From a virus, in the IMG/VR virus record IMGVR_UViG_3300036402_000062, positions 135-64,134 of that record: DNA of 64,000 bases, one strand, 5' to 3'. This document shows, piece by piece, positions 44,903-52,181 of this stretch. The notes under the pieces are model-generated. The model was not told the DNA's origin, ran no database searches, and was given only the letters and a program-made list of their open reading frames with translations. Both the position numbers and the translations under genes were made by a program. The stretch's first letter is position 1. Each line of letters begins with the position of its first letter.

Positions 44903-45691
44903 ATGAAAATCAAGCGCTTCCTCCCTCTGCTCTTCGCGGCCGCCCTCGCCGCTGTGTCGGTCGCGGCGCAGGCCGCTGGCGTGGACGTGAACGGCTTCAT
45001 CGCCGCGCACAGCGACGCCATCACCGGCTTGGCCATGGTCGGCTCGGTTTCCCTCCCGAACGGCGCCCTGGTGCACATCGCCAGCGGCTACGGAGCGTCG
45101 AAGACGATGTCCGCGATCACCAACGCCTCCGCGGCGGTGGCAACGCTGGAAGCTTCGCACGGAGTCATCGTCAACGACATCATCGAGGTGACCTCCGGCT
45201 GGTCCCGCCTGAACAACAAGGTGGTGCGCGCCTCCGTGATCTCCACCAATGACGTGACGCTGGAAGGCATCGTCAGCACGTCGACCGCCATCTACCCGGC
45301 CGGTACCGGCACGGGCTCGGTGCGCGAGATCACTGGGTGGACCCAGCTGCAGCAGATCCTTGACTCCGGTTCCAACGGCGGCGAGCAGCAGTTTCTCGAG
45401 TTCCAATTTCTTGAAGGCGACGCGCAGGTGCGCATCCCGACGTTCAAGAATGCCGCGGGCCTTTCCTTCAGCATCGCGGACGACCCGACCCTGGCCGGCT
45501 ACCTGCTCGCGTCTGAAGCGAACGACGACCGGCTGCAGCGCGCGGTGCGGATCACGCTGCCGTCGAGCGCGAAGATCTATTACAACGCGTATATCAGCCT
45601 GAACAAGACGCCGTCGCTGAACGTCAACCAGCTGATGGCATGCCAGGTCACGTTGTCGCTGCTGAACGAGCCGGTGCGCTACACCTCGTAA
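44903..45691 (+). CDS. major tail tube protein with signal-peptide-like N-terminal extension
   Basis: SVSLPNGA core start, SGWSRLN, GGEQQF..QFLE, PSLNVNQ; preceded by MKIKRFLPLLFAAALAAVSVAAQAA. Confidence 0.88.
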   Translation: MKIKRFLPLLFAAALAAVSVAAQAAGVDVNGFIAAHSDAITGLAMVGSVSLPNGALVHIASGYGASKTMSAITNASAAVATLEASHGVIVNDIIEVTSGWSRLNNKVVRASVISTNDVTLEGIVSTSTAIYPAGTGTGSVREITGWTQLQQILDSGSNGGEQQFLEFQFLEGDAQVRIPTFKNAAGLSFSIADDPTLAGYLLASEANDDRLQRAVRITLPSSAKIYYNAYISLNKTPSLNVNQLMACQVTLSLLNEPVRYTS

Positions 45692-45694
45692 GCC

Positions 45695-46006
45695 ATGGCG
45701 AAGCTGCAATTGAAAGCGGCGCCCACCTTCCAGGCGGAGGTGGGCATTCCTGCTGCTGGTGGTGTGGTGACGAACGTCTCCATGACGTTCAAGCACCGCA
45801 CGAAGAGCGAGCTGGACGAGTTCATCAAGGGCCGCGTCGGCAAGTCCGACGTGGAGTCCTTCATGGAAATGGTCACCGGCTGGGAACTGGAGGACGAGTT
45901 CACGGAGGCATCGGTCAAGACGCTCCTGGAGAACTACATCGGCGCAGCGCAGGAGACGTTCTTCAAATACGTCGACGAGCTGGTCCAGGCCAAGCGAAAA
46001 AACTGA
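45695..46006 (+). CDS. tail assembly chaperone (gpG-like)
   Basis: After the tail tube gene; ends at slippery A-AAA-AAC. Confidence 0.85.
   Translation: MAKLQLKAAPTFQAEVGIPAAGGVVTNVSMTFKHRTKSELDEFIKGRVGKSDVESFMEMVTGWELEDEFTEASVKTLLENYIGAAQETFFKYVDELVQAKRKN
45997..46003 (+). other. programmed -1 frameshift site (A AAA AAC)
   Basis: X-XXY-YYZ heptamer in frame before TGA 46004-46006; the -1 frame is open to 46314. Confidence 0.8.
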
Positions 46007-46314
46007 CGGCGGCAGCTCGTGGGCTCTACACCGAGGGACCCACCGAGCAGGAAGCCGCGCAGTTTGGCCTGACGGTCGAAGAGGCGGAGCAGACGGTGGA
46101 AGTCTGGCCGGACAACTGGCTGTCCGTGAACACGTTCGCCGCGCTCTCCACGCAGTGGCGCGTGGGCGTGTCCGGCCCCATCGGCCTCGACTACACGGCG
46201 ATCCCCGATGTGATGCGGATGACCGGCGTTCCGCGAGCGGAATGGCCGGAAGTGTTCGACTGCATCCGGGTGATGGAAGTCGCCGCGCTGCGCAAGCTGC
46301 GCGAGAAGAAATAG
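45997..46314 (+). CDS. tail assembly chaperone gpT-like extension (DUF1799-like)
   Basis: VWPDNW...F...TQWR.G..G..GLDY...IRVME.AAL reached by the -1 shift. Confidence 0.82.
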   Translation, partial: KKLTAAARGLYTEGPTEQEAAQFGLTVEEAEQTVEVWPDNWLSVNTFAALSTQWRVGVSGPIGLDYTAIPDVMRMTGVPRAEWPEVFDCIRVMEVAALRKLREKK

Positions 46315-46315
46315 A

Positions 46316-46684
46316 TCAGGAACCGAACTGTCTAAGTGTCGGATCGCGCTTTGTGCGCGGCGCGGCGCAAACCCATTCGCTGAGGGCGCGTGATGCCTTC
46401 GTCGCGCCCGCCTTGTCCCCCGCGAAGTTGACGCCCTTGCGGTCTTGCAGCGTGATGACGCTTCGTTGGCAGTTGACGACGAGAAAGAACGCGGTCCGGT
46501 CAACCCCCTTCGGGCCACCCATGAAGACGGGAGATGCACGGACGTCACCGTTCGCTGTGACGTTGGATTCGTCGATGCACATAGTCCCCCGAGTGACTTC
46601 GTCAACGTGGCACGACAATTCTTTCGCATGAGCAGAGCCGAGAAGGAATGCGACGAGGCCGAGCGCCAACCGCAGTGCAGTCAT
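46316..46684 (-). CDS. exported protein (moron)
   Basis: Signal peptide MTALRLALGLVAFLLGSAHA; four Cys; antisense to the tail genes. Confidence 0.75.
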   Translation of the reverse strand: MTALRLALGLVAFLLGSAHAKELSCHVDEVTRGTMCIDESNVTANGDVRASPVFMGGPKGVDRTAFFLVVNCQRSVITLQDRKGVNFAGDKAGATKASRALSEWVCAAPRTKRDPTLRQFGS

Positions 46685-47019
46685 TTGCCCCCCTTAATTT
46701 TGCGGGGCGGCTGTTCGGGGGGGCGCACCTGCCCGAAGTGAATCGGATCGCCGTCATCATGCATTTCAATGCCGCCATCCTCGGGCTGGCGCTGCATCCA
46801 CTTGTGCAAAGCGTCTACTTGTAGCGACAAGCGATCGAAGCGGCGCGCGAATTCAGAGGCCGCGGCAGGTTCAAGGGTCTGCTGAAGGCGCGCGACGATC
46901 TCGGAGTTCATGGAGCGGTTGTTCCGCTTCGCCGCCTCCGCGATCTTGTCGCGCATGCCATCTGGCAGCCGAACGATGAACCGATCGGCGAGTTCGCTGG
47001 GGTACTTGTCAGCCGGCAT
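46681..47019 (-). CDS. Arc/Mnt-family ribbon-helix-helix repressor
   Basis: DRFIVRLPDGMRDKIAEAAKRNNRSMNSEIVARL. Confidence 0.92.
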   Translation of the reverse strand: MPADKYPSELADRFIVRLPDGMRDKIAEAAKRNNRSMNSEIVARLQQTLEPAAASEFARRFDRLSLQVDALHKWMQRQPEDGGIEMHDDGDPIHFGQVRPPEQPPRKIKGGK

Positions 47020-47036
47020 CGGCCCATGCTAATCCC

Positions 47037-47093
47037 GACTTGGCATCAAGGGAATCATGCCAACTTGTCATCGATGCCGAGTCGCCATATAGT
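47037..47093 (+). promoter_or_regulatory. sigma70 promoter with Arc/Mnt-type operator repeats
   Basis: TTGTCA (47065-47070), 17 nt, TATAGT (47088-47093); TTGGCAT/ATGCCAA inverted repeat 47040-47063 and a third half-site GATGCCGAG 47073-47081. Confidence 0.75.
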
Positions 47094-47128
47094 GACGGTG
47101 TCAACACGATGTAGCTGAGAGGTACTAA

Positions 47129-47305
47129 TTGAAAGCCGGAAAACGTCCGATCCCCCCATTTGGGCTCCGCCTGCCGGAAGACCTCAAGACGTGGCTTGAG
47201 GTGCGCGCCCGCGAAAACCGACGCTCCATGAACTCAGAAATCACCTTTTTGCTTGACCGGTACCGCGCGCAGCAGCAGCGGCAGCCACAGGAGGCGATGC
47301 AGTGA
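47129..47305 (+). CDS. Arc-like repressor (58 aa, not in ORF track)
   Basis: Own translation from TTG: MKAGKRPIPPFGLRLPEDLKTWLEVRARENRRSMNSEITFLLDRYRAQQQRQPQEAMQ; GAGAGG RBS. Confidence 0.85.
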   Translation: MKAGKRPIPPFGLRLPEDLKTWLEVRARENRRSMNSEITFLLDRYRAQQQRQPQEAMQ

Positions 47306-47841
47306 CCGCGCAGGTGCTTGTCTTCGCCGACTACCAGGGGCTGGAGGTGTCGTTCACCCCAGACGGCTGGTTCAACGCCACTGCGGCCGCGAGCAAGTTC
47401 GGCAAGAAGCCCAACGAGTGGCTACGACTGCCGGAGACGAAGCGGTACATGCGCGCGCTAGCCAGGAAGGCCGAAGCGGGAAAATCCCACTTCGGGTACC
47501 GGACGGAGCGCGGTGGTCGCATGGGCGGCGGCGTCACCTGGCTGCATCCGAAGCTGGCGGTTCGGTTCGCTCAGTGGCTTGACGTGGACTTCGCGGTCTG
47601 GTGCGACGAGCAGATCGACGCCTTGCTGCACGGCCGCCCGGTGGTCGGCGCCGGACTCTATGCGCAGCGACTCGCTTTCGAGGGTCGAAAAGCCGGGAGC
47701 GAGCAGAAGGGACGGATCGGCAGTCGATTGATGAATGAGCGACGGAGGGAAAAGCCGGCGCTGGAGCAACAGGACGAGCGGTGGAAGCTGACCATGGAAC
47801 CCGGCTTGTTCGGGCGATTGGACTTCGCACAGGCTGCCTGA
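47302..47841 (+). CDS. KilA-N domain protein (antirepressor-like)
   Basis: DGWFNATAAASKFGKKPNEWLRL, GG.TWLHPKLAV.FAQWL..DFAVWCD. Confidence 0.9.
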   Translation: MTAQVLVFADYQGLEVSFTPDGWFNATAAASKFGKKPNEWLRLPETKRYMRALARKAEAGKSHFGYRTERGGRMGGGVTWLHPKLAVRFAQWLDVDFAVWCDEQIDALLHGRPVVGAGLYAQRLAFEGRKAGSEQKGRIGSRLMNERRREKPALEQQDERWKLTMEPGLFGRLDFAQAA

Positions 47842-47916
47842 AAAGGTGAAGCCCCGACGCTGGCAGGCGTCAGGGCTTCGGTGATGAACCCAACCCGTCT
47901 AAGAGAAGGAATCAAC

Positions 47917-48177
47917 GTGGCGAAGATTACCACCGCGCGCCGGAGCGCGCAAACACGACAGTTTTCGAAGTTCATGGCGCAAGTCATGGAGCCGGTGACC
48001 CAGAAGCCGACCCTGCGGGAGGCGATCGCAACGATTGGAGAAGCCCTCCAGCCGCTCGGCCAGTTGGAGCGAGACGTTATCGCGGTCGGCCTCGCTCTCC
48101 TCGCGAAGAACCCGGAGCAGAGCGGCAGGCTCGCGATGTCCATCAGCGTCTTGGCTGGACACGAGGCAGCACGCTGA
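47917..48177 (+). CDS. hypothetical helical protein
   Basis: GTG start after an AGAAGGA RBS; TGATG-coupled to the RAMP-like gene. Confidence 0.6.
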   Translation: MAKITTARRSAQTRQFSKFMAQVMEPVTQKPTLREAIATIGEALQPLGQLERDVIAVGLALLAKNPEQSGRLAMSISVLAGHEAAR

Positions 48178-48752
48178 TGGTCACGAAAAAAGAAACCACG
48201 ATCACGCTGCCGGCGCTGAATATTCAGTTCCTGAAGCTGCGACTGGTGGGCGACAGCCCGCTGATCTGCCACGCCTGGAGCGAGAAGGCGAAGAAGCAGA
48301 TGCTCGACGCGCAGATGAAGAAGGCAAAGCAAGCGAAGGCCGCCAAGGACCCGGAGCAGGATTTCCAGGACTCGCTCTACACGCACCCTGATGGCGGATA
48401 CGGCTTCCCCGCGGTTGCGTTCAAGGCGGCGGCGGTGGACGCCTGCAGTTCCATCGAGGGCGTCACGAAAGTGGAGGCGCGCGGCGCCTTCCACATCATG
48501 GGCGACATGGTGAAGATCGAAGGCGAGCCGACGCCGCGCGAAGACATGGTGCGCGTTGGCATGGGGACGGCGGACATCCGCTACCGTGGCGAGTTCCGCG
48601 AGTGGGCTGCAGACATCACGCTCCGCTACAACGCAAACGTGCTGAGCCCGGAGCAGATCGCGAACTTGTTCAACACAGCCGGCTTCGCGGTCGGCGTGGG
48701 CGAGTGGCGTCCGCAGCGTGACGGCAGCTTCGGCATGTTCCACGTGGGTTGA
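48177..48752 (+). CDS. stand-alone RAMP/Cas7-like RNA-binding protein (Vipr-like)
   Basis: RAMP hallmarks: beta1 LRLVGDSPL, GFPAVAFKAAA (cf. IPgssLKG), terminal Gly-rich loop GVGEWRPQRDGSFGMF; 191 aa. Confidence 0.8.
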   Translation: MVTKKETTITLPALNIQFLKLRLVGDSPLICHAWSEKAKKQMLDAQMKKAKQAKAAKDPEQDFQDSLYTHPDGGYGFPAVAFKAAAVDACSSIEGVTKVEARGAFHIMGDMVKIEGEPTPREDMVRVGMGTADIRYRGEFREWAADITLRYNANVLSPEQIANLFNTAGFAVGVGEWRPQRDGSFGMFHVG

Positions 48753-48754
48753 TC

Positions 48755-49240
48755 ATGATCTACAAGTTCAGGGACGGCGCCCACCTCACGGGCGATGCGC
48801 AGAAGGTGGGCGAACGGCTGGCGGCACTGGAGGCCTCCGGGCGCCTGACGGCCAAAGCGGTGGTGCAGGAAGCTCGCAGCGACGACAGCCCGTTGCATCC
48901 GCTGTTCGAATGGGACGACGCGAAGGCGGCGGACAAGTACCGGATCGCACATGCCGGTCACGTGATTCGCTGCGTCACCGTGGTGTTGGACCAGCAGCAA
49001 TCGGAAGAGCCGAAGACGATTCGCGCGTTCGTGCCGATCACGCAGGGCGACGAGAGCCGGCAGTACGTGGACACCGTGCGCGCGTTGAGCGACACTGAGA
49101 TGCGCAGGCAGGTGCTGGCGCAGGCGCACGCAGAACTCGGCGCAGTGGCGCGCAAGTACCGCGAACTGAAGGAGCTGGCGGACGTGGTGAACGCAATCGA
49201 CCGCGTCGGCGAGCTCCTGAAGGAAGGGCAGCACTCGTAA
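48755..49240 (+). CDS. conserved phage protein linked to the RAMP gene and array
   Basis: LTAKAVV.EAR...SPLHPLFEWDDAKAA..YR motif; lies between the RAMP gene and the array. Confidence 0.8.
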   Translation: MIYKFRDGAHLTGDAQKVGERLAALEASGRLTAKAVVQEARSDDSPLHPLFEWDDAKAADKYRIAHAGHVIRCVTVVLDQQQSEEPKTIRAFVPITQGDESRQYVDTVRALSDTEMRRQVLAQAHAELGAVARKYRELKELADVVNAIDRVGELLKEGQHS

Positions 49241-49250
49241 GAGGCTGGCC

Positions 49251-49445
49251 CGGGCCCCAAGGCCCGAAACATGGCAGGCATGGCTCGGCAAGGCGAGTCG
49301 GGGCTTGGCGTGGCTTGGCTTGGCGCGGCTGGCTAGGCGCGGTTTGGCTAGGCAAGGCAGGGCTTGGCGCGGCCCGGCGAGGCGAGGCAGGCATGGCTTG
49401 TCTTGGCATGGCACGGCTGGGCACGGCTCGGCCCGGCAGGCGGTA
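49251..49445 (+). ncRNA. putative guide RNA: 5' hairpin plus GGY-NN pentamer array (vrRNA-like)
   Basis: 30 pentamers (27 GGC-NN, 1 GGT-NN, 2 GTC-NN) in 3 blocks delimited by 4-nt GGCW units at 49273, 49327, 49386, 49435; hairpin CGGGCC-ccaa-GGCCCG 49251-49266. Confidence 0.85.
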
Positions 49446-49451
49446 AATGGG

Positions 49452-49480
49452 AAGGCCCTCTTCGGAGGGCCTTTTCTTTT
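49452..49480 (+). terminator. intrinsic terminator closing the array
   Basis: AAGGCCCTC-TTCG-GAGGGCCTT-TTCTTTT. Confidence 0.9.
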
Positions 49481-49490
49481 GGGGAAATAG

Positions 49491-52181
49491 ATGGCGGACC
49501 TCAAAGCACAACTACAGATCGGCGCCGACGTTTCCGGCGTCGAAGCGGGAATCACGCGTGCGAAGAAGTCGATCAACAGCCTCGGCGTGGCCGTTCAGGA
49601 CGCGAACAGCAAGGGCGCGAAGTCGATCGACCGCTACGTCCAGACCCTGCAAACGCAGGCTGCGACGATGGGCAAGTCCTCGCGCGAGGCGGATCTGTAC
49701 AAGCTGGCGCTGAAGGGTGCTTCCGACCAGCAGCTGAAGGCAGCCGACACGGCCATCAAGATGAAGGAGGGCTACGAGCGAGGGGAAGCCGCGGCGCAGC
49801 GCCTGCGCTCGGCCTTCGTTGCGATGGGCGCCATCGCCGCCACCAGCCTGATCGGCGCGCTCGTCGCGTTCGACCAGCTGGTGAAGAAAGCCGGTGACTT
49901 TCAGGACATGGCCGAGAAGTTCGGCGATTCCGGGGAGAACTTCGCCTCGCTCGCCGTTGCCGCCGGCACCGCGGGTGTGCAGATGGACGTGGTCGGATCG
50001 GCCGCGGGCAAGCTGACGAAGAACCTCACCGGCGTGGACGACGAGTCCAAGGCGGCAGGCGCGGCGATCACGGCGTTGGGCTTGAACCTCGCCACCTTCA
50101 AGCAACAGAGCCCTGCCGACCAGATCGAAACCGTCGCGAAGGCGCTGGCCGGGTTCGAGGACGGCGCGACAAAGACTGCCGTGGCGATGGCGCTGTTCGG
50201 CAAGTCGGGCGCCGACCTGTTGCCGTTCCTGAAGGAGCTGGGCGCCGAGGGCGGCCGGCAGGTGATCCTGACGCAGGAGCAGATCCGCCTGGCGGACGAA
50301 TACTCCGATCGCCAGGCCAAGCTGCGCACGGAGATCAGCCTGCATGCGCAGGCGCTGGCCACGGAGCTGCTGCCAACGATCACTCAGTTCACGGCCGCCA
50401 TCGCCGAACTTGCCAAGGACCAGCAAATTGCCTCTGCGGCGGTCGACCTGCTCAAGTCGGCAATCGGCGGCGGGATCGTCGTCTTTCAGACGATCGCAGT
50501 CGTCGCCTCCGATGTGGGGTTTGTGTTCAAGGTGCTTGGCCTAGAGGTCAAGGCGACCTACGACCAGCTGGTGAAGATCGCAACGCTGGATTTCACTGGT
50601 TTCGCAGCAATCAGTGAAGCTGTGGAGAAGGATGCCGCACGAGCACGCTTGACGCTCGATCAGTTCCAGGCTCGGATCATGGCCATCGGCCAGCCCAAGT
50701 TCACCGATCCGCGCATCCTCGGACCAGTTGGATCAATCGCTGAACAGTCGGCCGGCTTCCGAAAGAAGCTGACATTCGACGGCGGCGAGAAGAAAGGCGA
50801 CAAGAGCGCGGAGCAGGAGGCGAAGGCGCGGCTCGCTTTCGACCTGGAGCAAATCAAGAAGGCGTCAGAGTCGATCATCGGGTCGTTCAGCAATGGCGAA
50901 CGAATGCTGGAGGCGGCCCGGTCGGCCGGATTGCTGGACGAGAGGGATTACTACGACCAGAAACTTGCCTTTCTGCGCGCGAATGCGGCTGAGCAGGAGG
51001 CTGCAATCAGCGCCGAGATCAACCGTCTGCAACGGGAGAAGCTGACGGGCAAAGACAAGATCGACAACGACCGAAAGATCCTCGACTCGAAGGCGAAGCT
51101 GGCGAAGGCGACCGCCGATGCTGCGGCTTCGGAGCAGGTGCTGGCCACGCAAACCACCGCAGCACTTAGCCGGCAACAGGTTGCCTTGCTCTCGGCTCGC
51201 CAAGCCGCACAGGACTACTACGACGAGGTCCAGCGTCAGCAGCAGCGCGAGCTGGCCAGCGTCGGGCTAGGCAAGCGCCAGCGCGACCTGAATGCCGGCG
51301 TCAACCAGATCGAGGACCGGTACGCGAACCAGCGTCGCGACCTGGAGAACCAGCGCGCGTTGATCGCGATGGAAGGCAAGACGACCGCCGAGACGGAGCG
51401 TCAATACGCCGAGCGTCTGCGGATCATCAACGAGTTTCAGCAGCGGTCGGTGGATTCGTACATCGGCTATTACGCCCGGCTCATGGAGCAACAGGGTAAT
51501 TGGGCCGCCGGCGCGAACGAGGCGCTGCAGAACTACTACGACGATTCGCAGGACGTGTTCAAGGGCGTCGAGGGCGCCGTCACGAAGGCGTTCCAGGGCA
51601 TGGAGGACGCGCTCGTCGAGTTCGCCACCACCGGGAAGATGAACTTCAAGGGGCTGGTGAATTCGATCATCGCGGACATCGCCCGCATCGTGATCAGGCA
51701 GAACATCACCGGGCCGCTGGCGAAGGCGCTGCAGGGCTCCTTCGGTGGCGGCGGCAGCGGCCCCGGCGGCGGCTTCAGCTCCGACGCGAGCCTGCTGAAC
51801 TACGTGAACGCGATGCCCAGCGCCAAGGGCAACGTGTTCCAGTCGGCCGGCCTCGCAGCCTACTCGAACCAGATCGTCAACAGCCCGACGCTGTTCGCGT
51901 TCGCGCGCGGTGCCGGGCTCATGGGCGAGGCTGGCCCGGAGGCGATCATGCCGCTGCGCCGCGGCGCCGACGGTCGGCTGGGCGTGGAGGCGGCGCAGGG
52001 CGGCGGCGCCATCCACATCGTGAACAACCTGCCCGCGCAGATCGGCAAGGTCTCGCAGCGCCAGACACCCGACGGCGACCGGGTTCTCGTTCTCGAGGCT
52101 GTGGCGACGGCGCTGGGCGACCCGCAATCGCGCGTGAGCAAGGCCATGCAGCGCAACTACGGGTTGTCGAGGAACCGCTGA
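49491..52181 (+). CDS. tail tape measure protein (lambda gpH-like C-terminus)
   Basis: 896 aa, helical Ala-rich; C-terminal SAKGNVF...SPTLFAF..GAGLMGEAGPEAIMPL.RG.DG.LGV. Confidence 0.95.
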   Translation: MADLKAQLQIGADVSGVEAGITRAKKSINSLGVAVQDANSKGAKSIDRYVQTLQTQAATMGKSSREADLYKLALKGASDQQLKAADTAIKMKEGYERGEAAAQRLRSAFVAMGAIAATSLIGALVAFDQLVKKAGDFQDMAEKFGDSGENFASLAVAAGTAGVQMDVVGSAAGKLTKNLTGVDDESKAAGAAITALGLNLATFKQQSPADQIETVAKALAGFEDGATKTAVAMALFGKSGADLLPFLKELGAEGGRQVILTQEQIRLADEYSDRQAKLRTEISLHAQALATELLPTITQFTAAIAELAKDQQIASAAVDLLKSAIGGGIVVFQTIAVVASDVGFVFKVLGLEVKATYDQLVKIATLDFTGFAAISEAVEKDAARARLTLDQFQARIMAIGQPKFTDPRILGPVGSIAEQSAGFRKKLTFDGGEKKGDKSAEQEAKARLAFDLEQIKKASESIIGSFSNGERMLEAARSAGLLDERDYYDQKLAFLRANAAEQEAAISAEINRLQREKLTGKDKIDNDRKILDSKAKLAKATADAAASEQVLATQTTAALSRQQVALLSARQAAQDYYDEVQRQQQRELASVGLGKRQRDLNAGVNQIEDRYANQRRDLENQRALIAMEGKTTAETERQYAERLRIINEFQQRSVDSYIGYYARLMEQQGNWAAGANEALQNYYDDSQDVFKGVEGAVTKAFQGMEDALVEFATTGKMNFKGLVNSIIADIARIVIRQNITGPLAKALQGSFGGGGSGPGGGFSSDASLLNYVNAMPSAKGNVFQSAGLAAYSNQIVNSPTLFAFARGAGLMGEAGPEAIMPLRRGADGRLGVEAAQGGGAIHIVNNLPAQIGKVSQRQTPDGDRVLVLEAVATALGDPQSRVSKAMQRNYGLSRNR

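Follow-up and report, generated by a model that had tools for sequence, protein, structure and literature searches.

The window analysed here is a stretch of 64,000 nucleotides (nt) of viral DNA, namely positions 135 to 64,134 of IMG/VR record IMGVR_UViG_3300036402_000062, and it makes up nearly all of that 64.5-kb record from a soil metagenome. Within its tail genes lies a cassette of 3.18 kb (46315-49490) in which a VIPR system, as identified from a modelled fold and from homology, is joined to a control region that resembles the immI region of phage P22 closely enough to be counted as its homologue. An earlier note on this DNA, made from the letters alone, had described the cassette as an RNA-guided system in an Arc/Mnt-controlled, immI-like operon. 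In VIPR systems, the minimal RAMP protein Vipr forms a polymer along a guide RNA built of GGY-NN units, the vrRNA (bioRxiv 10.64898/2026.04.26.720920, 10.64898/2026.04.26.720927, 10.64898/2026.10.15.759431). The NN bases pair with double-stranded DNA, with every third base skipped, binding silences transcription, and an accessory gene, vap, is found alongside (bioRxiv VIPR preprints).

The cassette and its insertion site

The cassette sits exactly at the junction of the genes for the tail assembly chaperone and the tape measure protein, and its proposed location inside the tail cluster is therewith confirmed. To its left are the gene for the major tail (tube) protein (44903-45691) and that for tail assembly chaperone G (45695-46006, with a frameshift extension to 46314), and to its right the tape measure gene starts at 49491. 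Read from left to right, the order is chaperone, orf122 and an mnt-like gene (both leftward), an arc-like gene (rightward), kilA-N, a small open reading frame (ORF), vipr, vap, a tract of pentamers, a terminator and the tape measure gene, and all cassette genes rightward of the promoter share their orientation with the tail genes.

We compared this arrangement with that in 37 viral contigs carrying homologous tube and chaperone genes, none of which (0/37) contains vipr, vap, kilA-N or the ribbon-helix-helix (RHH) gene. The gene-neighbourhood comparison with phages lacking the cassette, which the earlier note had proposed, gave the same answer throughout: in 7/7 relatives with enough sequence, the tape-measure ORF, of 831-999 amino acids (aa), follows directly after the chaperone genes, at a distance of 308-316 nt from the chaperone G gene, as against 3,485 nt in the window. 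In other words, the cassette is an insertion, or moron, in the late tail operon. A locus scan of genome contigs with a single-protein query returned one locus.

The VIPR system

The vipr gene (48177-48752, plus strand; phrog_4652) encodes a stand-alone, Cas7-like RAMP protein of 191 aa, whose family comprises 3,955 clusters at 50% identity and bears neither a name nor a Pfam family. The AlphaFold2 model of the protein reaches a predicted local distance difference test (pLDDT) score of 95.8. In Foldseek, its first 50 matches are all Csm3, Cmr4, Cas7-11 or type VII Cas7 (expect values, E, down to 5e-6), and in VIA-align (Z 11.3) the top matches are all type III or type VII Cas7. Four residues near the C-terminus, namely G169, G173, R178 and G186, are invariant, in keeping with the single RRM and the G-rich loop expected of a minimal Vipr. 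What is more, the protein is homologous over its whole length to the product of the Vipr gene of Escherichia phage SUSP1 (24% identity, E 1.6e-11), a gene that is flanked by published vrRNA tracts in a one-plus-three arrangement. The earlier call of a RAMP protein can consequently be made more specific, in that fold and SUSP1 homology both make the 191-aa protein the Vipr of a VIPR system.

The next gene, vap (48755-49240, plus strand; phrog_15946), is a VIPR accessory gene of what we call the 'FEWDD' family, with products of 161-163 aa. The model of the protein (pLDDT 94.4) shows an alpha/beta N-terminal domain followed by a C-terminal helix of 45 residues; a structure search gave no informative fold match, its results being dominated by this long helix, and the protein is not similar to SUSP1 vap1. 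The partnership of the two genes is nevertheless widespread. Namely, a vap homologue adjoins vipr in Gordonia, Mycobacterium and cyanobacterial phages, and the co-occurrence spans phages of Proteobacteria and Actinobacteria as well as the cyanobacterial ones. Pseudomonas phage LESphi2 is not among the matches to the 163-aa Vap. A Vipr homologue lies beside a same-strand GGY-NN tract in Mycobacterium, Gordonia, Pseudomonas and cyanobacterial phages, and in all 14 of the related loci scanned for tracts GGY-NN tracts accompany vipr.

In the window, a tract of 33 GGC-NN pentamers on the gene strand (49273-49445) is the sole GGY-NN tract in 64 kb. It can be parsed as a staggered vrRNA array of three guides (49277-49439, plus strand), here called b1 (49277-49326, 10 units), b2 (49331-49385, 11 units) and b3 (49390-49434, 9 units), all on the plus strand. 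At the end of each guide stands GGCTG or GGCAG, the last G of which is common to the next block, and the same grammar is found in sibling loci; as far as the legend to Fig. S18 of the VIPR preprint describes them, the parse fits the 'staggered arrays' with 1-nt overlaps. Behind the array stands an intrinsic terminator, a hairpin with a U-run (49449-49480, plus strand; -22.7 kcal/mol, z-score -2.9), and a similar hairpin closes the arrays of the sibling loci L008, L010 and L011 (loci are numbered here with the prefix L). Its end is 10 nt short of the tape measure start codon (ATG, 49491), just where the earlier note had placed it.

Taken together, the fold, the homology to SUSP1 Vipr, the GGY-NN array and the conserved partner gene identify the 'guide system' as a VIPR system. 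Like the systems of SUSP1 and of the P. fulva prophage, it is phage-borne and consists of a stand-alone minimal RAMP protein, gene-strand GGY-NN guides and an adjacent accessory gene. Unlike that of SUSP1, it has a vap of the FEWDD family (phrog_15946) and one staggered array with no tail between the guides. Two other readings of the array were set aside. A CRISPR reading was rejected, there being neither repeat-spacer units nor further cas genes, and a reading of the pentamers as sites for a TRAP-like RNA-binding ring, or as iterons or a centromere, was dropped in view of the VIPR papers and the Cas7 fold.

In this vipr clade, the array is preceded by a conserved leader, GGCCCGGGCC-N4-GGCCCGAAAC and then ATGGCAGGC (window 49246-49270; L008 6125-6150; L010 2625-2652; L011 6085-6108). 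The leader may serve in processing or as a handle, and its hairpin is no stabler than that of shuffled sequence (z-score 0.0). In other genomes, GGY-NN tracts have been annotated or gene-called as proteins, namely as gp40 of Gordonia phage UmaThurman (L002 3634-3957), at 3846-4541 of L015 and as protein P0325, and the mis-called tracts include a 'pentapeptide repeat' ORF and the N-terminal extension of a vap. Such protein calls are likely a systematic mis-annotation of vrRNA arrays.

The control region and its homology to P22 immI

The claim of divergent Arc and Mnt genes is borne out at the level of protein families. The leftward gene (46681-47019, minus strand) encodes a Mnt-like RHH repressor of 112 aa (RHH112; Pfam Arc PF03869, E 7e-17), which in BLASTP shares 33% identity over 63 residues with P22 Mnt (E 3e-7) and consists of an N-terminal Arc fold with a C-terminal extension, as Mnt likewise does. 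The rightward gene (47129-47305, plus strand), which starts with TTG behind a GAGAGG Shine-Dalgarno sequence, encodes an Arc-like RHH repressor of 58 aa (Arc58; Pfam Arc PF03869, E 1e-9) with 43% identity to P22 Arc (E 2e-7, BLASTP).

In the gap between the two genes, the near-consensus promoter that had been described is indeed present (TTGTCA-17-TATAGT, 47065-47093, plus strand). It is a sigma70 promoter with 10/12 consensus matches, which we liken to Pant of P22, and it is the sole sigma70-like site in 45500-50000 (1 seen, 0.3 expected). Candidate operators are four GGCAT/ATGCC half-sites at 47015, 47042, 47057 and 47074 (span 47015-47084), arranged as inverted repeats; no other stretch in 64 kb holds four such cores in 81 bp (background 0.24 per 81 bp). 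The half-sites TTGGCAT/ATGCCAA named in the earlier note (47040-46 / 47057-63) do form a perfect 7-nt inverted repeat, but this repeat abuts the -35 element and does not overlap it, contrary to the overlap with the promoter that had been stated. A third copy (GATGCCGA, 47073) falls within the promoter spacer and the fourth over the leftward ATG, and an imperfect 32-bp palindrome (47057-47088), likewise a candidate operator, spans the -35 element and the spacer. A perfect TTGACA at 47104-47099 (minus strand) was considered as part of a leftward promoter and rejected, having no usable -10 element.

Further downstream, the opposite strand carries a sar-like antisense RNA (47844-47916, minus strand; Rfam RF00262, match 47844-47915), which is absent from the earlier note and scores 43.6 bits against a gathering score of 43. 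It consists of a 5' hairpin with the anti-Shine-Dalgarno sequence UCCUUC, followed by a terminator hairpin, and its fold has the two hairpins of P22 sar (z-score -4.9). In the alignment of the two RNAs, the terminator stem is identical (ACCGAAGCCCUGAC...GGGGCUUCA), and the anti-Shine-Dalgarno stretch and an upstream -10-like element are kept. The 5' end of the sar-like RNA abuts the complement of the orf86 start codon, just as that of P22 sar does with the ant ATG. A candidate Psar promoter (TTGCGC-17-TAATCT with a TG extension, 47924-47952, minus strand) lies inside the first orf86 codons, and the position of its -10-like hexamer is kept in P22 and four sibling cassettes.

Because of this homology with P22, in which the 5' end of sar abuts the start codon, we place the start of the small ORF at GTG 47917, with an AGGA Shine-Dalgarno sequence 7 nt before it. 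The gene, orf86 (47917-48177, plus strand), thus most likely encodes 86 aa and does not begin at 47881, as had been assumed. It is predicted to be gated by sar, matches no family, is not similar to Ant, and shares 30% identity with the ORF that precedes vipr in L006. The description of the operon as mostly translationally coupled holds for arc and kilA-N, which overlap in GTGA, for orf86 and vipr, where stop codon and ATG overlap in TGATG, and for vipr and vap, at whose junction there is a 4-nt overlap or a 2-nt gap. It does not hold for kilA-N and the following ORF, since the 75-nt gap between them houses the sar-like RNA gene.

Could the RHH pair instead serve partition, in the manner of ParG/omega-like proteins, or act as an antitoxin, with no bearing on VIPR control? 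The PHROG label of two of the best RHH families, 'partition protein ATPase', would speak for it. However, P22 mnt carries that same product name in RefSeq (NC_002371; L013 14519-14770), which probably explains the misleading label on these Arc/Mnt-type families (phrog_795, phrog_2685). What is more, neither the ORF list nor Pfam shows an ATPase or toxin gene here, and layout, promoter and sar all match immI. We give this possibility next to no weight.

The control region reads, on the evidence of its sequence, as a true homologue of P22 immI, and what was offered as an analogy has thereby turned out to be real homology: there are Mnt-like and Arc-like proteins, a sar RNA at the homologous position, and a moron in a late operon. 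In P22, the layout is gene 16 / sieA, orf59a, mnt (leftward) / Pant-arc-sar(-)-ant-terminator-gene 9, and in the window it is chaperone / orf122, mnt-like (leftward) / promoter-arc-like-kilA-N-sar(-)-orf86-vipr-vap-vrRNAs-terminator-tape measure. Common to both are divergent RHH genes on either side of a strong rightward promoter, which in the window is a predicted one, as well as a passenger gene that follows mnt, an RNA of the sar family, a terminator at the right end, and insertion into a late structural operon in the same orientation. The differences are equally clear. Namely, sar of P22 gates Ant, whereas the sar-like RNA of the cassette is predicted to gate orf86-vipr-vap-vrRNA; unlike P22, the cassette has kilA-N between arc and sar, other operator sequences and no clear Pmnt; and it resides in a siphovirus at the chaperone/tape-measure junction, whereas the P22 region resides at the junction of genes 16 and 9.

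Recurrence in sibling cassettes

In order to place the cassette among its siblings, we surveyed the gene contexts of close Vipr relatives, 14 distinct ones in all. In 6/14 (window, L006, L010, L011, L014 and L018), vipr is directly preceded by a divergent RHH pair, the flanking genes being otherwise unrelated. All five contexts checked (window, L010, L011, L014 and L018) have a rightward sigma70-like promoter in the RHH gap, at the same place as in P22, and five of the six have a sar-like RNA. In particular, Rfam gives sub-threshold sar matches at the expected place in L010 and L014, and a covariance model of our own, trained on the window, L010, L014 and P22, finds two members on which it had not been trained, in L011 (51 bits) and L006 (E 3e-4). 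Both lie directly upstream of, and antisense to, the ORF leading into vipr, and the same model gives no match in VIPR loci without RHH pairs.

Over the six sequences, pairing in the sar terminator helix reaches 96%, and 6/13 pairs show compensatory changes. Among 500 shuffles, none reaches the observed percentage paired, the pairs or cells with compensatory changes, or the covariation score; 28 reach the count of further pair types. Controls in which the partner column was slid are 34-52% paired. Since the switch together with VIPR recurs in unrelated flanks, it evidently moves and is maintained as a unit.

These data bear on the possibility that the switch is vestigial, in which case the cassette would essentially be transcribed with the late operon, and VIPR would have inserted into an older ant moron, of which promoter, RHH genes and sar would be decaying relics. 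Such an account would fit the orientation that the cassette shares with the tail genes, the need for late polymerase to cross it on the way to the tape measure gene, the failure to find a good leftward promoter, and the existence of degraded ant morons (PMC2629481). Against it, both RHH ORFs are intact and have strong family scores, the promoter matches the consensus at 10/12 positions, the sar helix has been kept by compensatory changes across five VIPR cassettes, and the switch-plus-VIPR unit recurs in unrelated flanking contexts. We therefore regard decay of the switch as very unlikely.

Antirepressor-type genes, too, recur in the neighbourhood of vipr. In L006 a pRha gene lies between arc and vipr, in L014 a pRha+ANT gene does so, and in Mycobacterium phage Quico a Bro-N+ANT antirepressor gene is found just upstream of the array and vipr. 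In the window, the gene for a KilA-N domain protein of 179 aa (47302-47841, plus strand; Pfam KilA-N E 2e-18; phrog_129, phrog_1136) occupies the slot that Rha or Rha-ANT genes have in sibling cassettes.

A more distant parallel is provided by Gordonia phages ODay and Ecliptus (ODay L003 1763-4718), in which vipr, a GGY-NN tract and vap stand at the same chaperone/tape-measure junction, again with a divergent pair of small DNA-binding regulators and a leftward passenger gene, as in the window. Here, however, the regulators are HTH_3 and not RHH proteins, no sar-like RNA was detected, and the host is actinobacterial, that is, from a different bacterial phylum. In the RHH gap of L011 (3885-3940), a TTGACA-18-TATATT promoter is flanked by the palindromes CCACCGTGG and CACGGTGG, which resemble the core of the P22 Mnt operator (TCCACGGTGGA).

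Guide targets

Guides were decoded by the published VIPR rule, in which each unit contributes its NN bases and one base is skipped before the next unit; for natural targets, the rule is one skipped base and at least 80% of the NN bases (bioRxiv VIPR preprints). For guide b1, 18/20 guide bases match in L006, in a Phage_pRha gene (Pfam E 1e-25) where this encodes a conserved motif, '(M)TKDGFVFLA'. The gene belongs to the RHH-controlled VIPR operon of L006 itself and takes the slot that kilA-N has in the window. A score of 18/20 is reached by 0.2% of unit-order permutations (p 0.002).

Guide b2 has a near-cognate site in the tube gene of the window (45560-45591, minus strand), where 18/22 guide bases match, a score that 0/1000 permutations reach, and where every skipped base falls on codon position 3, i.e. 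the wobble position. With such a candidate target, read with one skipped base on wobble positions, the system would resemble published VIPR. The decoded perfect target of b2 would encode SSGAKL(F/L)Y(K/N)AY, and the tube protein of the window reads PSSAKIYYNAY. Relatives have G at the third residue of this motif and L at the sixth and seventh, and b2 scores 15-16/22 on them. It thus looks as if b2 is aimed at a sibling tube allele that has so far been absent from databases, and its match to the tube gene of the window could reflect either an escape allele or self-regulation; in the published systems, there were no self matches at 80% or more (bioRxiv VIPR preprints).

Nine guides of sibling cassettes, run against the window and the sibling loci, matched at background level only. 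No exact match was found in viral contigs for b2 or b3, nor in metagenome contigs for b2. The idea of phage-phage competition, raised in the earlier note, fits both the published biology of VIPR and the near-cognate matches of b1 and b2. It is likely that the guides are aimed at competitors, b1 at the Rha-type gene in a rival's immI-VIPR operon and b2 at a tail-tube allele.

Discussion

In our view, the cassette is probably a switch of the immI, or 'ant moron', type, which is lodged in a late tail operon and drives kilA-N, a small ORF and a complete VIPR system. The corresponding region of P22, the 'ant moron', is independently expressed and highly variable among related phages (PMC2629481), and the roles of Mnt, Arc and sar in it have been described, including the silencing of Pant by Mnt in the lysogen (PMC11016777). 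By extension from P22, the cassette would work as follows. When the phage enters a cell that lacks this prophage, the Pant-like promoter would be fired by host RNA polymerase, and Arc58, KilA-N, orf86, Vipr, Vap and guide RNA would be made in a burst, after which Arc58 would close the promoter again. The sar-like RNA would pair with the ribosome-binding site and start of orf86, as in P22, and, because orf86, vipr and vap are translationally coupled, such pairing would curb synthesis of the VIPR proteins. In the lysogen, again by the P22 parallel, the promoter would be held off by the Mnt-like protein, which would be produced along with the secreted orf122 product. Late in infection, transcription probably crosses the cassette to the tape measure gene. 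Namely, the late transcript of P22 crosses the ant moron on its way to the tailspike gene (PMC2629481), and because of this read-through a promoter of its own is unlikely to mean that the cassette is independent of late transcription.

Would the module act in a burst at infection, or could it be a defensive moron expressed in the lysogen? In the latter case, the promoter would be partly active in the prophage, RHH autoregulation would set a steady level, and VIPR would silence superinfecting or co-resident relatives. Several observations are in line with such steady expression: late-operon morons with a promoter and terminator of their own are typically expressed from the prophage (PMC2629481); in Pseudomonas phage LESphi2, array, vipr and vap lie downstream of cI in the same direction; the VIPR of the P. 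fulva prophage targets regulators of resident prophages (bioRxiv VIPR preprints); and a guide against a relative's tube gene would block the late operon of an incoming relative. However, the control region is homologous to immI, where Mnt silences Pant in the lysogen, and the combination of an arc-type autorepressor with a sar RNA suits a transient burst, not steady expression. We consider a lysogen-expressed defence unlikely, and the comparison with P22 makes the infection burst the more probable of the two.

That said, it should be noted that a number of points weigh against an immI-type switch in command of VIPR. To begin with the control elements, the operator-like sequences differ from P22 Oarc and Omnt, and no leftward promoter can be recognised for the mnt-like gene, since the closest sequence (TTCCCT-17-TAGCAT) matches the consensus at 7/12 positions and would give a leaderless mRNA. 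The score of the sar-like RNA exceeds the Rfam threshold by just 0.6 bits, and the candidate Psar is weak by consensus (6/12). What is more, the gene that sar is predicted to gate is orf86, which matches no family and is no antirepressor, and kilA-N lies upstream of sar. In the KilA-N protein, neither an ANT domain nor similarity to P22 Ant was seen, and 'antirepressor-like', the term applied to it earlier, draws on its KilA-N domain and its position and is thus a positional argument only. The RHH pair is missing in 8/14 sibling VIPR contexts, and immI-type control is therefore one option and no rule. The sequencing runs that hold the stretch comprise one soil-metagenome DNA run, with no RNA run listed. 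Finally, in phages of similar base composition there is no perfect natural target for any guide, and b1 has seven exact 20-base matches (L019-L025, IMG/VR contigs) in AT-rich, unrelated phages. Five of these seven encode ISKDGFVLLA in one family of tail- or baseplate-looking proteins and two lie in a short ORF, and the exact matches are probably due to chance and a conserved peptide, a real class of targets being less probable.

With an immI-type switch as our preferred reading, the module looks like an infection-time weapon against related phages and prophages, deployed together with an antirepressor-type protein. One can take this further and picture an 'induce-and-cripple' weapon used at entry. 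In the first minutes, the antirepressor-type protein (KilA-N here; Rha, Rha-ANT and Bro-ANT in siblings) would derepress resident related prophages; the co-expressed guides would silence the tail operon and the immI-VIPR operon of those prophages; sar and Arc would switch the weapon off before self-harm; and the position of the cassette near the tail genes would keep it linked to the 'immune', mismatched tube allele of the same phage, 1.3 kb upstream of the Pant-like promoter. As a whole, this extended scheme is speculative, and we think it quite improbable.

What is new here is, first of all, a union of two known things. The immI region and ant morons have been known since the 1980s and VIPR since 2026; in the union, a clade of VIPR systems is probably under the native control of an immI-type switch with its sar RNA. 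Also new are the antirepressor-type genes that are repeatedly found beside vipr and the apparent aim of one guide at a rival's homologous operon. Word searches of the VIPR preprints found no mention of RHH or antirepressor genes or of the tape-measure insertion site, and nothing on the native control of VIPR by phages; in those passages that the search returned, 'promoter' refers only to expression or reporter vectors and to the positions of reprogrammed guides. In the window and its five siblings, a whole VIPR clade is seen to be connected to a phage switch that is among the best understood, and this wiring predicts a transient burst at infection, Mnt-like silence in the lysogen, and a second brake exerted by an antisense RNA through translational coupling. 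The link with antirepressors and the guide against a rival operon point to fights between related temperate phages. What is more, the sar RNA family extends well beyond the enterobacterial P22-like phages.

The leftmost gene of the cassette, orf122 (46316-46684, minus strand), was taken from the ORF list and encodes a secreted protein of 122 aa with a Sec signal peptide and an AHA cleavage motif. It overlaps the mnt-like gene (46681-47019) by 4 nt (ATGA), which amounts to translational coupling, and it holds the place of P22 orf59a/sieA. The protein has no Pfam or PHROG match and bears a weak, Adhesin_E-like structural resemblance to surface adhesin E clusters (template modelling score 0.55); besides the signal peptide, it contains four cysteines. 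By the P22 parallel, orf122 would be expressed in the lysogen, and it is a candidate exclusion or conversion factor.

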